A stretch of DNA of 64,000 bases from Curvularia clavata (lineage: Eukaryota), in assembly GCA_023920165.1 (NCBI GenBank), contig CP089280.1:744001-808000 (forward strand). Reading direction: 5' to 3'. The position numbers and the translations under genes were made by a program. Of the stretch, positions 33,778 through 40,346 are shown piece after piece. Within the stretch, counting starts at the first letter, position 1; each line of letters opens with the position of its first letter. The notes beneath the pieces are model-generated. The model was not told the DNA's origin. It saw only the letters and a program-made list of their open reading frames with translations, and made no database searches.

Positions 33778-35772
33778 CTAGTTGTGAGAAAGGCCACCCC
33801 TTCCTCTCCCTCTTCCACCTCTCCCTCGCCCACGACCTTGTCTCTGGCCCCGATTCTGTTCCCTTGGCGGAACCTCACCTCTATTCCAGCGATCCCCTTC
33901 TTCGCGAAGATCTATCCAGCGTTCGTCCAACCCTTTAGCGCGTGCTGCTTCTCTCCGCTTTGGGCTGGCCGAACCAGTCGTTACGCTATCCTGCACCAAC
34001 AACTGCATGCCTACACTCTCATCGGCGCCCTGCTCGTACATACCGAGTGCGAGTACTTCGCCTTTCGGGTTGTACGAAGCCCGAGGGTCGATGGTGCCGC
34101 TATCGCGGAAGTGAGTGATTGAGCGTGAAAGCATGGGATCGGGATGTGGATCCGCGATGCCGTGGAAAGTAAGGCTCTGGACTGCGCCTTCAAGACCGGC
34201 GTAGAGGTTCTGCGATGTGGGTGAAGGGATGGAAAGACTATAGACGGGAGAGTCTTCTCGGACACGCGAGTAGTCTTGTCGATAGGCGCTGCGTGGTGGA
34301 GGGATGCGCGGATTGAGGTATAGGTTCCATCCGCCGCTGATCGTCGGTAGTTTGTTCTTGCTCTCATCAACGATAGTGTTAGTTGCGGAGTCTCGTGTTC
34401 TCGCAGGCTTCTTTCCGTTGGACGACGGCAATGTGATGGTATGGTATGCGTGCGATCCAGAAAGTCGCAAATCAAAGACCTTGATCATGCTGTGCAAGGC
34501 GACTCCTGCCACCACACGGTCCATGCCTTGGGCAGCGAGTGAGTATATTGGTGAATCATTGGTTGGATCCCAGTAAATTTGCTCGAAGCCCCGTGGTGAA
34601 CGCATGTCATGCAGCCGGATGAGACCGTCATAGCTACCGGAGAGAAAAGTGTTGCCTTCTGGGCCGCCATGGGCTGCGCTGGGAATAGGCAATATTGGAT
34701 ACACTGAAGTAGGACGAGAGGTTGATGCACTGTCAGTGGCAGTAGTAAAACTGCGAAGAGGCACAGGCATGAAGCCATCAGGGCCGATATGATATACCTC
34801 GATTGGCTCTACATTTGGCCCCCAGCCAACTGCGACTTTGTCATTGGATAGGAACTGGCAAGACCATAACCGACCAAGTCGTGCACTCGCCACGGTTGTC
34901 TTGACTTGTGAGGCGGGTTTGATCTTTTCATGTGATGTGTAGTCACGGTCTAAAGCATACAATGCTAGTGACGAGTCTGCTAGCGCAGCGGCCACCATCG
35001 GCGCGCTTGATGAGGATAATGAGAGATCATTTATGCCTCTCCGACTAGTGTCGTATTGTTGCAACAATGTCTCTTCCATATCAGGATTAACACTGAGCAG
35101 AGACAGCTCACCCGATGCAGTTCCAAAAACAATATCTTCATAAGCTAGGTCCCGCTGATGAGGTCGCAGCAGCCTCAACTGCGTGATATCATCGCGACCT
35201 TCAAAGCTTTCAGGGATTCTGTATGTGAACCACGTGTTCAAATGCTTAAAACTGTCGTAAGCCCAAGTCTGGTCAGGCACCTCTCCTGCATCTTCTTCGC
35301 GCTGTCTGATCTTTTCGATGCTTGCACCCGTTTCTTTCGTTCTCAAGACGATCTGGGTGCCGGCAGACCATGCCAGTACTTCTCGTCGTTCTTCCCACCC
35401 ACCGTATATCTCTTCATAGCTGTCGATGCTAGGCTGGTAACCCATAGTCTGGCCTTGCGGGCCTCTCCATGTCTCGGGCCGCCACGTGTTGAGACTTGTT
35501 ACTTGTTCAGTGGGCTCCAAATATTTTGCGACGAAGCCTTTGCGGTCCCAGTTGCGATGCAGAGTGGTTAGCCCGTGAACAGAGTCGCGAGCATCTGAGT
35601 CCAGCCCGCGAATCCCAAACCGGCCTTTGAGAAAAGCCTTGAATCCGTCAAGCTTCCCAAAGTCGCTCAGACGACGGCTCGCCAGGGAGAGATTGAGAAC
35701 ATCTTGGGGGCGTTCGAGATGTCTTGTGATAAGCGAGAGGATCTCGTTTGGTAATGTATTGAGCGTTGTCAT
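33778..35772 (-). CDS. F-box protein with WD40-like beta-propeller region and RG-rich tail, 664 aa
   Basis: N-terminal F-box pattern LNTLPNEILSLITRHL...LNLSLASRRL, WD-like segments FLSGSYDGLIRLHDMR and MIKVFDLR, C-terminal RGRGRGGRGRGRGG. Confidence 0.82.
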   Translation of the reverse strand: MTTLNTLPNEILSLITRHLERPQDVLNLSLASRRLSDFGKLDGFKAFLKGRFGIRGLDSDARDSVHGLTTLHRNWDRKGFVAKYLEPTEQVTSLNTWRPETWRGPQGQTMGYQPSIDSYEEIYGGWEERREVLAWSAGTQIVLRTKETGASIEKIRQREEDAGEVPDQTWAYDSFKHLNTWFTYRIPESFEGRDDITQLRLLRPHQRDLAYEDIVFGTASGELSLLSVNPDMEETLLQQYDTSRRGINDLSLSSSSAPMVAAALADSSLALYALDRDYTSHEKIKPASQVKTTVASARLGRLWSCQFLSNDKVAVGWGPNVEPIEVYHIGPDGFMPVPLRSFTTATDSASTSRPTSVYPILPIPSAAHGGPEGNTFLSGSYDGLIRLHDMRSPRGFEQIYWDPTNDSPIYSLAAQGMDRVVAGVALHSMIKVFDLRLSGSHAYHTITLPSSNGKKPARTRDSATNTIVDESKNKLPTISGGWNLYLNPRIPPPRSAYRQDYSRVREDSPVYSLSIPSPTSQNLYAGLEGAVQSLTFHGIADPHPDPMLSRSITHFRDSGTIDPRASYNPKGEVLALGMYEQGADESVGMQLLVQDSVTTGSASPKRREAARAKGLDERWIDLREEGDRWNRGEVPPREQNRGQRQGRGRGRGGRGRGRGGLSHN

Positions 35773-36738
35773 GATAGCGTAGGTAAGTCTACCACCATTT
35801 CTAGCAGACTAGATAGTGGTTCTTCAAGAAAAAAAAGTAGTGATGCTTTTTATAAAGGGATACCCAGGCCTTGTAATAACCTCCTGGGGTTGGTGAAGAG
35901 CATGGCTGGTGGTGGTTTGTTGTTCCGGGCAAGATGACGACAGGCGTCGCTTAGCGGCGTTGGTACCAGGCAGTCGCGAGTGAGTCACGGGCCAGCACGA
36001 GGAGCAAGTCGTCACTCTGACTCCTCTTCCCTACACGTTTCAAGCCCACGCCGGATTGCCCACTGGAGCTCGCAGCATCAACGTCGTCGCCAGGATCAGA
36101 TCCAACTTCAGCCTCAGCTCCAGCACTACGGTAGCACCAGCAGCGACCTACGGTACGGCAAATGACTCCCGGCTGTGGTTCCCCCTGGTGGCCATGCCAT
36201 GCCTCAATTAGCCGTCGGGTCACCCCCCAGCAGGGTAAGACAGAAGTACCCTAGCTGCCACGCCACGCTATCAGCCGTAACCGATTAACGCGTCCCTGGC
36301 ATTAAGACGCGCCATGCAGCCGCCCGTGACGGGCATCACGGCCATGCATATGTTTGTGAGCAGGTCGAGGCCATGTCGTCCTCACGCATTCGCCAAGCTT
36401 CCCCTATGCATTTCTTGCGTTGCCTCTCGAGAAACGCTGCAACCCCGCACTGAAACGGCCAGCGCTCCTCTGTCGGTCCACCTCTATCAGGCCTTATCCT
36501 TTCCTCTGTTTCGAGCAATCAGCATCCGCGGACCTGGTGCTGACCCTTAAGACCACGCCCAATGACAACCGTTTGCAAGTGCCAACCTTAACCCCTACGG
36601 CCCGTGAGAACCCCTTCTCCCAGCCTTTGCGCATGTTGGTTATCAGTCGCAAACACCTCTGCCACTCACACTCGTGTTCGTTTGGACTAGATTGGTTGTG
36701 ATACTTCTGCCACGCAACGCTGCCAGGTCACATCAGCC

Positions 36739-38604
36739 ATGGCCGACGAGAAAAGGGTCTTCGCATTGGTTGGCACCATCGGAGCACTACGCGAACGACT
36801 TCGACGGGACATTGACAGCTTGCGCCAGATTCACAACCGCCGCAAGGACAACAGTGAATCGTCTATCAATCTCCTTGCCCAACTGACAGCCTTGAAATCT
36901 ACCTTCGGAAACATCCAGGACTGGCTAAACAGTGCCGGCAATGATCTACACCCCCAACTGCTTACTGACCTGGACGTACTTGTTCGATCATCCGATGAGC
37001 TTGCACGCCATGTGAGCGCACTCATTAGGACCTTTCAGCGATCGGACCCCAGTGCCGTTGATTTTGCAGCCAGGCTAAAGCATGCACTTGCTGGTAGGAC
37101 CATGAGTCGACTGCAGACAGTTGCACAGCGCCAAAACGATGCTGTAAATCTACTTCTTGCAGCATGTCATTGGTAAGTAGCTCAGCGTAAGCTTCTGCAC
37201 CTCAGATGACTGACAAGTAATAGCACGGCTCAGGCACAGCGCAAGATTTTACTCCACAAGAGTCGCCAGATTAGGCGGGAAGACGCCGCAAATCTCAAGC
37301 TACTCTCGCAGTCTTCAAGATGGAATAGTGGCTGCATTGCAGGACTTGCGCACCTATCGAGTCTCGTCCAATGGCTGATGCTCATCTTCAACAAGCAGCA
37401 ATCTCGAAGTCCACTCGACAGAAACGTTTCGCCTAGCGATGCAGATTATGAGCATGTTGAAGCAATGAATCGATCCGAAGCAATCGATCGTGCGCTGCAA
37501 AGAGAAGCCACTAATCTTCGTCACGAGACAAAGCTCGTCCTCGTAGGGAAAACCAACAGTGGCAAAGATCTCTTAATGCACCAACTGAAGATGCTGTACG
37601 CAGAAGGCCACCTGTCAACCAACGAACGCATCAAATACCGGCACCAAATCTACCAAGTGGTCTACTCTCTCATGCACTCGATCAGCCACCTCCTCACAGA
37701 TACCGGTGTTTCCCTCCCTCCTGCGCTCAGCCATGATTTTGCTACGTTACTGCACGAACTGGACGCTGGTAATGAAGGCATTACACCGGACGCGGTCAAA
37801 GCATTTGATCATATCTGGTCCAGCCCTCAATTTTCCAAGCTTTACGACCACAATTTCGAGATTGAATTCCCGCAATACACCCCGTATTTTGCGCAGGAAG
37901 TCGCCCGTATAGCTGAGAAAGACTATGTTCCCACAGAAGCGGATATCATTCGCTTGAACCAATCTATGCGTGGCGTCAAAGAGCTGCGCTTCAACTGGGA
38001 CGAACTTGACATACATCTGTTCAATATTAGAGAGGGCCTTCCTGACCAGTTCCGAGAGCGCTGGTTTCATCAGCTTGAGGGAGCGACCGCGCTCATGTAT
38101 ACTATCGACGTATCTCTGTATGATAAGCCCAATCCTAACCGACCGAACGAGTCGCTTTTATGGGAAGAGATTGAGAGCTTTGGGAGCTGGATCAGTCAGC
38201 CCGGATTTTCATCCTCTTCGGTTATTCTCATACTTAACAACTACACCCGTTTCATCAGAAAGATGGCACACTCGCCTTTGGAGAAGTTCTTCCCAGACTA
38301 CTCGCCGAGTAAAAGCGAACCCGAAACATCGGTCAGGCAGTATATTGTGCGCCAGCTCAAATCCGTCAACCGCCAAAGCCTGTTCTTCTACTCCTTCTGG
38401 GTCGACCTCGATACCAGTGATAACAGACAGCTATACTCTGCGCTCAAGACAACACTGTCGCAGATACAAGAACGAAGGATCCAAGAAGAAACTTGGTACG
38501 CGAGCCGTCCGGCTCCAGACTCGGATTCACCTCCAAAAAGCAGCTTGTCCAACGTCATTCGGACATATAGCCAGAAGAAGAAAGAAATAAATGAGTTGAA
38601 CTGA
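36739..38604 (+). CDS. Fusion of a fungal HeLo-like N-terminal helical domain and a degenerate heterotrimeric G-alpha domain, 604 aa; exons 36739-37172 and 37224-38604
   Basis: Intron 37173-37223 (GTAAGT..ACTGAC..TAG) joins the two track ORFs in frame (434+1381=1815 nt). G-alpha hallmarks are present (RSEAIDRALQRE, KLVLVG...SGK, DYVPTEADII, ERWFHQLEG, SSVILILN), but the G boxes are altered. Confidence 0.85.
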
Positions 38605-40346
38605 TTGGGTCGATTGACATTAGTGTCAATCAATTGAAGGCGTTCTGGTTTTCCGGCATTTGAAGCCCATGGCGTTTGTGAATACGAAGATACCATGGCG
38701 ACGGGTCGGCGTTCTTGCGGAGATGGGCGTCACCGTGGCGTATATTTCGCCCCAGCCGAACGGGTCGGTACAAGCGATGGTTGCATCAGATACTTGATAC
38801 TGCCACTGCATATAGCCCCGGACGATTTGTCAATGTTTACTAGTAATCTATATCTGCCTTGTCACACCCTGCTCGCGAGCACTACGCTTTCCAACAGATC
38901 TCCGCGTTTCGGGCGAGATGCAATTGCCGAGCGGAGGTCTGCTGCTTTACATCTTGGTCCATTTGCCCATGATTGGGTGAGAGCTGAGCAGCATTGTCCA
39001 TTTTATATTTGTACCCACGCCTCCACCCTTTTCCCCACAAGTTCAAGAAGTCGATACGATCTATCTTGGCATTGCTAAATTCGAAGCCAGATTATTCATT
39101 TGCGACCCATATGCTTGTGTTGGACAGGACGCGTGTCCTATGCTCACACAACAGCGTGTTAAGCCTCTTGCTTAGAACTTGTTGATTCCTCGCGCGTTGA
39201 CCGCTATTTGACAAGACCAATCGTTACCCAAGGCAGCAAAACTCGTCTCGAGTGTGTAGCACTTTTCCGACGGCAGCGTCTCGACAGTCTGGACTGCAGA
39301 GGAGTTCTAAATTTGGACCAGTTGATTAGATGGGGATTACCAACTATGATGTCGGAACTTTAACTCCGCGATGGTTACTAAGACCACTTTTGTGGCAAAG
39401 TGGAAAGACAAAGAACAAAACAAACCATACCACACCACACTACCTCAGATATTTGGACGAGTTACGTACAGCTTGGTCAATCTGGTAATTGAGAAAGTGG
39501 TATGAGATTTCGTGTTGTCCCTGCTTACGCATCATCTAGTGCCCCTACTAGGATGTGCTAGTGGCTGACGGCCTTAGACCGCCACATGCATAGCCTCTTT
39601 CGAGCCCAACGTTTCTGCTTGACTACTGTACGAACTGTTTCAATGTGCTCCTTAAAATCGCCCTGACTCATTTGACAAATCCGATCTGTCGTCATTGCTG
39701 CATAGGCGGCATGTCGAGTCCTGCGGCTGGCGAGATGCTCCACGTCACCAGCCATTGCTTCGCCCTGTTCACGTGGACATTCTTTCATGGCGGAACATGA
39801 CCGGATCGCTCTTCCGAGATGATTCAGCCATCTGGGATCTCAGCTTGAGCTGCCTAGCGCACGATGGACAGAAGTAAGTAATCACGAGAGCGGTGACTGC
39901 TTGAGCGGCTGAGCGGCTTTGAATCGGCATTCGGCGTCAAAGATGACTTTCCAAAGATGACTAAGACTCCAAGAAATGTGCATTGCGATTCTCAAGTCTC
40001 TGGCGGTCACATCTCACTGCTTTGCAGCAAGATTAAGGTTAAGGTTGACGGCGGCAGGATCTACCTATGCATTGCTGGCTTCCGTCGGCCACTTGCTCCT
40101 ACTTCTATTTTGGTGATGTTTAATAAGCGGTGCCTAGAAAAGGTCTGGTGGTAGAGACAAGCTGCGAGTCTCGTTTCGCTTAGCAACGCGGCCCCCAGTG
40201 TCGAGCCAGGGGAGTCTTCACTGATCGAATGTAACCTTGCCACATATGATTAGGGATAGATCAGCCGCTCAAAAGCAGGTCCATTTCAGCACTCTTTGTG
40301 CATATCATTTCCATACTCTGGTCCCCCATACGTACCTGCTGGCGCC

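Follow-up and report, generated by a model that had tools for sequence, protein, structure and literature searches.

Canonical heterotrimeric G-alpha subunits end in a short receptor-coupling tail. Plant extra-large G proteins (XLGs) carry a long N-terminal extension ahead of a G-alpha-like domain whose nucleotide-binding residues are weakened, and they are reported to be partly nucleotide-independent, and the pseudo-GTPases, such as the pG domains of p190RhoGAP and CENP-M, have small-GTPase folds. In fungi, G-protein signalling is usually assigned to three G-alpha groups, and the odd 'fourth' subunits have been dismissed as inactive, according to the available sections of two papers (PMC5869405, PMC13267034). 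GaoC of Aspergillus flavus is presented in the first of these as a fourth G-alpha with altered GTP-binding residues, predicted to be inactive and left unstudied, and Gpa4 of Ustilago maydis as having 'evolved dysfunctionally' (PMC5869405), and a 2025 review, in its available part, lists GaoC (690 amino acids, aa) and Gpa4 (580 aa) with function unknown and keeps the three-group scheme (PMC13267034). The available text of these papers describes the G_alpha domain alone and leaves an N-terminal HeLo-like domain unmentioned (PMC5869405, PMC13267034). The gene analyzed here occupies positions 36739-38604 of the forward strand of a 64,000-nucleotide (nt) stretch of contig CP089280.1 of Curvularia clavata, the whole of which is referred to as the window. 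It is a real, spliced and constrained fungal gene that joins a HeLo-related helical bundle to a G-alpha fold, where the known HeLo-like systems (PF17111; HELLP-type proteins and the N-termini of fungal NOD-like receptors, NLRs) have a NACHT/NB-ARC domain or an amyloid motif as partner. To our knowledge, no heterotrimeric G-alpha-type pseudo-GTPase fused to a HeLo-like domain has been described, and no literature linking HeLo-like/Helo_like_N with G-alpha was found in a full-text search, with subscription journals and supplements outside its coverage.

The gene consists of two exons separated by a short intron:

36739-37172, plus strand: exon 1, from the ATG to the first two bases of codon 145, encoding the four-helix bundle (aa 1-144)
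37173-37223, plus strand: intron of 51 nt, phase 2, with a GTAAGT donor, a CTGAC branch-like site at 37210-37214 and an AG acceptor at 37222-37223
37224-38604, plus strand: exon 2, from the third base of codon 145 to the TGA at 38602-38604

The start codon is the ATG at 36739, the first in-frame ATG downstream of a stop at 36688-36690. The unspliced open reading frame (ORF) of exon 1 ends at a TAA (37174-37176) inside the donor itself (G/GTAAGT, 37173), and the spliced coding sequence (36739-37172 plus 37224-38604) is a multiple of three that encodes 604 aa with no internal stop. Exon 2 encodes first a connecting helix, then the G-alpha, with alpha-N helix, Ras-like domain and helical domain, and last a tail rich in Ser and Pro. 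Contigs from three sequencing runs belonging to three studies, X1 (2774 nt), X5 (1876 nt) and X23 (1794 nt), match the window at 99% or more and omit exactly the 51 nt, with GT..AG ends. The RNA nature of these three runs is a guess in the run records; because the window DNA retains the intron, however, contigs that lack it correspond to spliced transcript, and because precisely 37173-37223 is omitted, both exons are joined in transcripts. The sole run recorded as an oligo-dT RNA library, X15, covers 36820-37074 and 38380-38700, with the junction outside, and therefore attests to presence and not to splicing. The coordinates, the two-exon model and the co-splicing advanced in the original prediction, which had been made from the letters of the window alone, thus proved right. 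A phase-2 intron lies at the same codon in two divergent orthologous metagenome loci, L001 and L003, and its position is apparently common to a wider family as well, in which exon-1-only fragments end in ...AC(x)W. Locus L003 shows in addition an apparent second intron within its G-alpha region (L003:3798-3821), where the tblastn match is split, and with the first intron alone removed it runs into a stop after 429 aa.

Two further observations concern transcription across the locus. The X1 contig extends 566 nt upstream of 36600 and 158 nt past 38700 (about 36034-38858), a length to be explained by a leader of about 700 nt or else by a fusion with the neighbouring divergent transcript in an unstranded assembly. 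In X5, a 60-nt contig omits 51 nt at 37964-38014 with CT..AC ends on the plus strand, equivalent to GT..AG on the minus strand (GTATGT donor 38014-38009, AG 37965-37964), and a 111-nt contig retains the same stretch, 3' of which contig depth is greater (86 versus 52). The 60-nt contig, with 30 nt on each side and found in one run, weakly suggests a spliced antisense transcript across the 3' half of the gene.

The second exon matches the Pfam G-alpha model (PF00503) with 184.6 bits against a cut-off of 48.8 (E-value 3.4e-54), over profile positions 2-331 of 333, and yields 353 distinct matches among solved chains at an E-value of 0.01 or below. The best solved relative is Gq (E-value 2.9e-40), with exon-2 residues 77-415 aligned to chain residues 9-346, and from this end-to-end alignment it follows that the protein has the alpha-N helix as well as both the Ras-like and the helical domain. 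The G-alpha domain begins at about residue 222, with the alpha-N signature RSEAIDRAL located just 5' of the Pfam match, from about 37453. An AlphaFold2 model of an 80%-identical orthologue (P0001) has the strands and helices of a G-alpha in this region, with a predicted local distance difference test (pLDDT) score mostly between 80 and 91 per block. The elements that locate the fold and its nucleotide-binding motifs are as follows:

37468-38451, plus strand: PF00503 match, aa 227-554 (exon-2 residues 82-409)
37546-37572, plus strand: G1/P-loop, GKTNSGKDL versus GTGESGKST in Gq; GxxxxGK survives, with Asp in place of the Mg-binding Ser/Thr
37951-37974, plus strand: switch I, RLNQSMRG versus RVRVPTTG in Gq; Asn stands at the position of the catalytic Arg and Arg at that of the Mg-binding Thr
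38023-38040, plus strand: G3/switch II, NIREGL(P) versus DVGGQ in Gq; Asn takes the place of Asp, no catalytic Gln remains and the stretch is two residues longer than in Gq
38236-38247, plus strand: G4, NNYT versus NKxD (NKKD in Gq); the Lys and the guanine-specifying Asp are gone
38398-38409, plus strand: G5, WVDL versus TCAT in Gq

Among the nucleotide and Mg contacts of G1 to G5, only GxxxxGK is therefore retained. Both the full-length G-alpha fold and the motif substitutions listed in the original prediction hold in the Gq alignment, and so does the absence of an N-terminal lipidation signal: the protein begins with MADEKR, so that there is no Gly-2 for myristoylation, and no myristoylation/palmitoylation signal of the MGxxxS type is present. 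The window protein thus shares with the canonical fungal G-alphas of groups I-III a complete fold that aligns with solved Gq and Gi chains, together with the alpha-N RSxxIDRxL and alpha2 RWxHxxEGxT stretches, but its N-terminus is extended by about 250 aa and lacks the Gly-2 lipidation site. Its C-terminus, as modelled in P0001, runs on into a helix and a disordered tail and not into a short receptor-coupling tail.

A word-indexed search with the protein returned 165 relatives at an E-value of 0.001 or below, and the best 120 of these 165 each scored at least 464 bits. The named sources among these 120 are all Dothideomycetes, and we take nearly all of them to be Pleosporales, the lineage having been looked up for Bipolaris and Zopfia only. 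The leading relatives, from Bipolaris oryzae and B. sorokiniana, are 605 aa long and 80% identical, and orthologues of about 600 aa with 50-80% identity occur in named Pleosporales and allied Dothideomycetes. Motif conservation was counted in an alignment of the window protein with 50 hits of 580-680 aa (51 sequences). The P-loop Gly...Gly-Lys is retained in 50-51 of the 51, and the full GxxxxGK in 50. The residue after the P-loop Lys, canonically Ser or Thr, is Glu in 32, Asp in 14 and Gln in five sequences, and Ser or Thr in none. In switch I, the position of the catalytic Arg is held by Asn (45 sequences), Asp (3), Thr, His or Glu (one each), and that of the Mg-binding Thr by Gly (37) or Arg (14). 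The G3 Asp is Asn in 51/51; NKxD reads Asn and Asn, each in 51, then Phe or Tyr, then Thr (38), Ser (12) or Asn (1); and the TCA of G5 is replaced by Trp, Val and Asp, each in 51. The G1-G5 contacts that canonical G-alphas use are hence replaced in all 51 sequences. Since this replacement is alike throughout the orthogroup, the loss of the motifs is old and uniform, with the substitutes themselves fixed. Little or no variation is seen across the same orthogroup in the alpha-N stretch RSEAIDRAL, in RWFHQLEGAT of alpha2, and in an end-of-bundle motif, ..AVNLLLAAC, which is common to the whole family and adjoins the conserved intron.

The degeneration of every G motif, and the division of exon 1 and exon 2 into two separate proteins in some database gene models, would also be seen if the locus were a decaying duplicate of a canonical G-alpha with a chance ORF upstream, i.e. 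a pseudogene or a mis-joined model. We consider this extremely improbable and rejected it, given the spliced contigs in three studies, the intact frame in 50 full-length orthologues, the conserved intron position and the pattern of substitution. All eight single-base differences between the window and the transcript contigs are synonymous, and all are at third positions. Proportions of nonsynonymous (pN) and synonymous (pS) differences were obtained for the window against L001 (identical to L002; 63% identity) in full and against L003 (54% identity) except for the tail. In the comparison with L001, pN is 0.212 in the N-terminal domain (N-domain), 0.228 in the linker and 0.208 in the G-alpha, and 0.53 in the C-terminal tail, against a saturated pS of 0.77-0.81. 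Because synonymous sites are saturated (overall pS range 0.77-0.83), a ratio of nonsynonymous to synonymous rates (dN/dS) is not computable, the single finite estimate being 0.10 for the G-alpha of the window versus L003. With pN at about 0.21 and pS at about 0.8, the gene is under purifying selection and not decaying, and the neutral decay that would mark a young pseudogene finds no support.

The fixation of the substitutes also bears on what the remodelled pocket might do. The main alternative to the scaffold function proposed below is a ligand-binding pseudo-GTPase, in which the pocket would bind a nucleotide (Mg-free GTP, ATP) or another phosphate ligand without hydrolysis, and the switch regions and the attached helical domain would take their conformation from that binding and not from turnover. 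The retention of GxxxxGK in 50/51 sequences would fit such a role, as would the fixed replacements (Asn in G3, an acidic residue or Gln after the Lys, NN, and WVD, each in 51/51) and a G-alpha pN as low as elsewhere in the protein. Against this stand the loss of both Mg ligands, of the DxxG Asp and of the guanine-specifying Asp, and the two-residue insertion in switch II, and we regard the possibility as rather unlikely, with some real chance of being right. The original prediction had called the protein nucleotide-dead; the part of that claim that concerns the canonical contacts stands, these being replaced in every sequence, and deadness itself is best put conditionally while GxxxxGK is kept and the substitutes are invariant.

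The N-terminal helical domain of about 145 aa that the original prediction had proposed was recovered in an AlphaFold2 model (18-row alignment) as four long helices spanning 144 aa (2-35, 40-66, 72-100 and 106-143), with moderate confidence (pLDDT 73.2, predicted template modelling score, pTM, 0.63). When scanned against Pfam, the N-domain of the window gave no PF17111 match at an E-value of 1 or below and did not reach the gathering score of 27.2 bits, and among 18 orthologous exon-1 fragments one matched (E-value 0.068). By itself the N-domain passed no Pfam model at all; its four sub-threshold hits, to AIP3, NagJ_C, MukF_M and BORCS8 (E-values 0.03-0.16), are to unrelated helical families and were dismissed as noise. 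A word-indexed search with exon 1 retrieved 16 longer proteins, all members of the same G-alpha orthogroup, and 17 exon-1-only fragments, with no other architecture; others surfaced only in an exhaustive search of 1.84 billion representatives with a profile of the 18 fragments, which yielded 330 proteins at an E-value of 0.001 or below and 134 at 1e-10 or below. Pfam was then run on 136 of the 150 listed profile matches (43 long and 93 short), the 14 left out being thirteen short fragments (65-164 aa) and P0034, a known orthologue. PF17111 was found in 9 of the 43 long relatives at an E-value of 0.001 or below, with P0246 at 27.4 bits against the cut-off of 27.2, and in 48 of the 93 short relatives at 0.01 or below, four of them over the cut-off (35.5, 33.4, 30.0 and 27.9 bits); two further short relatives matched SesA. 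The relatives that provide the link to PF17111 are matched by the 18-fragment profile with E-values of 1e-12 to 1e-21, and the intermediates that pass the PF17111 cut-off, P0165, P0207, P0226, P0195 and P0246 (35.5, 33.4, 30.0, 27.9 and 27.4 bits, respectively), with 5e-19 to 1.5e-12. The PF17111 matches are co-linear and begin nearly always at profile position 2-4, which is the start of the domain. In a protein-language-model search, the nearest clusters likewise carry PF17111 or SesA; of the 30 nearest that have a name, 21 contain PF17111, with scores up to 0.94.

Since the profile reaches intermediates that lie above the Pfam cut-off for PF17111, the N-domain is a divergent HeLo-like (PF17111-related) domain whose homology is transitive only. 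The resemblance to HeLo-like domains proposed in the original prediction is therefore upheld as kinship through PF17111-passing relatives and language-model clusters, but not as a match of the sequence itself. With the HeLo-like domains the N-domain shares its place at the very start of the protein and a bundle of four helices in about 145 aa; unlike them, it falls below the model. PF17111 is the Helo_like_N/HeLo-like family, and its profile aligns with the executioner domain of MLKL, according to the available portion of the source (PMC9815663). The copy of Pfam used here names the same family 'PigL_N' (pigment biosynthesis cluster protein PigL N-terminal), where papers write Helo_like_N or HeLo-like, so searches by name only would miss the HeLo-like link.

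The modelled fold was less informative. Foldseek found nothing in the PDB at an E-value of 0.001 or below, the best matches being IncA and chemoreceptor ligand-binding bundles. An exhaustive structural search (VIA-align) placed IncA first (Z 13.3) and returned 59 chains with Z of 8 or more, among which the MLKL N-domain appears at Z 11.2 (root-mean-square deviation 2.4 A over 100 residues, rank 9) and Z 10.4, with designed bundles also above MLKL and with the MLA13 CC domain (Z 9.8), AtMLKL3 (8.9) and the NRG1.1 CC-R domain (8.3) lower. The match of the model to MLKL, like those lower in the list, lies within the range that the search tool itself marks as non-discriminating for helical bundles, and is compatible with kinship to MLKL without discriminating it from other bundles.

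The bundle is followed by a second conserved helical element:

37225-37404, plus strand: connecting ('brace-like') helix, aa 146-205, a single long helix over 148-205 in the P0001 model

This helix opens with a near-invariant basic stretch, AQRKILLHKSRQIR, which has a counterpart family-wide, and K153, I154, L155, K158, R160 and I162 are invariant across 50 sequences. The first helix of the bundle, on the other hand, separates the orthogroup from its relatives. Hydropathy was computed over profile positions 3-24, after dropping 106 of the 228 domain hits in which more than four positions were absent, and with hits split at a chosen value of 140 bits. In the orthogroup (at least 140 bits, n=73) the first helix has a mean Kyte-Doolittle value of -0.46 and 7.0 charged residues out of 22, versus +1.22 and 2.6 out of 22 in the other relatives (n=49). 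Those relatives have a hydrophobic, Gly/Ala-rich first helix of the type MADPLSI(I/V)G..G..A.IIDV, and orthogroup proteins carry a charged helix instead.

The same searches place the gene within a Pezizomycotina-wide HeLo-like-plus-G-alpha family, new here. Among the 43 long relatives, 29 carry a G-alpha and 10 lack any family. The Fusarium longipes protein P0284 (1050 aa) combines HET with the N-domain and a G-alpha remnant; P0180 (436 aa) opens with PNP_UDP_1 and has the N-domain C-terminally; P0229 (Cercophora scortea) pairs the N-domain with PH_9; P0267 shows PF17111 alone and P0286 is low-complexity. In a further relative, P0280 (297 aa), the N-domain occurs with a P21-Rho-binding (PBD) motif. 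Two relatives are named 'Fungal N-terminal domain-containing protein' in databases, so that automatic annotation already recognises the N-domain there. Outside the orthogroup, the relatives fall in the following classes, which are our presumed assignments except for Xylographa, whose lineage was looked up:

Sordariomycetes: Podospora anserina group, Rhypophila, Lasiosphaeria, Monosporascus, Fusarium and Cercophora
Leotiomycetes: Botrytis paeoniae and Cudoniella
Lecanoromycetes: Xylographa
Dothideomycetes, as extra paralogues beside the orthologue: Corynespora, Clohesyomyces, Amniculicola, Dendryphion and a Phaeosphaeriaceae sp.

Twenty-two non-orthogroup relatives were aligned with the window protein, and some of them have near-canonical G motifs, as in these three:

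P0247 (Podospora): G1 GAGGSGKST, G3 DVGGS, G4 TKRD
P0273 (Botrytis paeoniae): G1 GSSNSGKST, G3 DVGGS, G4 TKID
P0279 (Rhypophila): G1 GSSPSSKST, G3 DVGGR, G4 TKMD

Other aligned relatives have motifs as degenerate as those of the window protein, or more so. Because relatives and both parent families at large show 'live' states, the orthogroup's charged first helix and its degenerate G motifs are derived. In Podospora anserina S mat+, the member of the P0247 type is represented by two adjacent models, PODANS_5_11490 (199 aa) and PODANS_5_11500 (354 aa), and in Podospora sister species the motif-intact member is a single protein of 603 aa; the two models probably arose as an artefact of annotation where the conserved intron lies.

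The make-up of the family raises the possibility of an MLKL-like executioner, in which the HeLo-like bundle would be a dormant module for membrane disruption or cell death, and the dead G-alpha its sensor, restraining it up to the moment at which a G-protein partner or an effector is bound. The homology of the N-domain to PF17111 is consistent with this, as are the fusions of relatives to HET (P0284) and PNP_UDP_1 (P0180), two domains characteristic of NLR and incompatibility proteins in fungi. Bundle, long connecting helix and catalytically dead regulatory domain also follow the layout of MLKL, and the MLKL N-domain is among the fold matches (Z 11.2); the dead enzyme, however, is a G-alpha and not a pseudokinase, the fold match stays within the background of helical bundles, and the hydrophobic first helix is absent here. 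Moreover, named genomes apparently hold one conserved copy beside separate, more divergent paralogues. Taking the 35 ORFs scanned out of the 139 of at least 110 aa in the window, neighbours are ordinary cellular genes: a HECT ligase, an XRN exonuclease, Uso1, a flavohaemoglobin-like protein, a short-chain dehydrogenase/reductase, a MOT1 molybdate transporter, a Yme1-type AAA protease, a P450 and a PDR ABC transporter are found among them. No NACHT, NB-ARC or HET domain was detected in these 35 ORFs, and G-alpha is the one family found in the protein itself. As the hydrophobic helix is lost and the context is stable and housekeeping-like, an executioner role is weakened, and we consider it distinctly unlikely for the window protein. 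Two suggestions of the original prediction fall with the same evidence: an integrated decoy is unsupported where the 35 long ORFs scanned include no NLR or STAND (signal transduction ATPases with numerous domains) gene, and a HeLo-like output is unsupported where the hydrophobic first helix has given way to a charged one.

The upstream neighbour deserves separate mention. A gene on the minus strand (33781-35808), arranged head-to-head at about 930 bp, encodes a 676-aa F-box-like protein (E-value 1.2e-5) with weak WD40/beta-propeller signals (Pfam E-value 0.003; in the PDB, WDR5 at about 0.1 and the G-beta Ste4 at 0.34). The divergent pairing with the F-box gene is kept in both metagenome loci, at L001:2-1615 (67% identity) and L003:4-1704 (61%), with nothing shared downstream, and the two genes may, judging by this arrangement, form a co-regulated pair.

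With a GTPase fold, lost G motifs and purifying selection, the window protein appears to qualify as a pseudo-GTPase, and differs from the known ones in being of the heterotrimeric G-alpha type. We think it reasonably probable that it is a conserved, expressed 'extra-large' G-alpha-like pseudo-GTPase working as a nucleotide-independent scaffold without GTP cycling, the mechanism being a proposal of ours. According to this scaffold model, proteins of the orthogroup would have lost both GTP cycling and a membrane-inserting executioner role. The G-alpha fold, with its alpha-N signature and alpha2 RxRWFHQLEGAT kept, would serve as a protein-binding module, since in canonical G-alphas these stretches contact G-beta-gamma and effectors. 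A second module, for interaction or for membrane association, would be the bundle of four helices together with the invariant basic helix. The working mode would be akin to that of plant extra-large G proteins or of the MLKL pseudokinase; the likeness to the XLGs, an N-terminally extended G-alpha with weakened nucleotide binding, is an analogy only, as their N-terminal region is unrelated and they belong to another kingdom. Compared by the published descriptions, GaoC (A. flavus/oryzae) and Gpa4 share with the window protein their length, a G_alpha domain, altered GTP motifs and a predicted inactivity.

Several results weigh against the scaffold model. The P-loop GxxxxGK and the invariance of the pocket substitutes N412, N484, W537, V538 and D539 mean that the pocket may have kept the ability to bind some ligand, whether phosphate-bearing or not. 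The direct PF17111 scan of the N-domain was negative, and its similarity to MLKL in fold does not single out that family. In addition, the full-length AlphaFold2 model of P0001 has no confident inter-domain packing (pTM 0.53, N-domain pLDDT 42-67). A complex predicted for the N-domain and exon-2 residues 1-430 (the G-alpha part), run without controls, scored 0.00 (mark 0.34) and counts neither for nor against the model.

A bolder proposal, which we hold to be unlikely, is that HeLo-like-plus-G-alpha proteins constitute an undescribed fungal class of switch and executioner, in which a G-alpha gates a membrane-attacking bundle. The G-alpha would here replace the NTPase of an NLR or the pseudokinase, binding GTP in lineages such as Podospora and sometimes accompanied by HET, and the Pleosporales orthogroup would be a domesticated, doubly disarmed adaptor that might bind G-beta-gamma or the head-to-head F-box protein, paired with it in three lineages.

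For fungal G-protein signalling, these results mean that at least one such inactive G-alpha is expressed, strongly constrained and physically joined to a HeLo-like domain, from a family connected with fungal cell death and with signalling by NLRs, and that the constraint spans a large order with many plant-associated fungi. A heterotrimeric-type G-alpha would thereby join the list of pseudo-GTPases. Because its members vary in the state of the G-alpha (live- or dead-looking), in the first helix (hydrophobic or charged) and in added domains (HET, PNP_UDP), the family offers a natural series in which to ask how a GTPase switch may be coupled to a HeLo-like module, and how such a module may be disarmed and reused.

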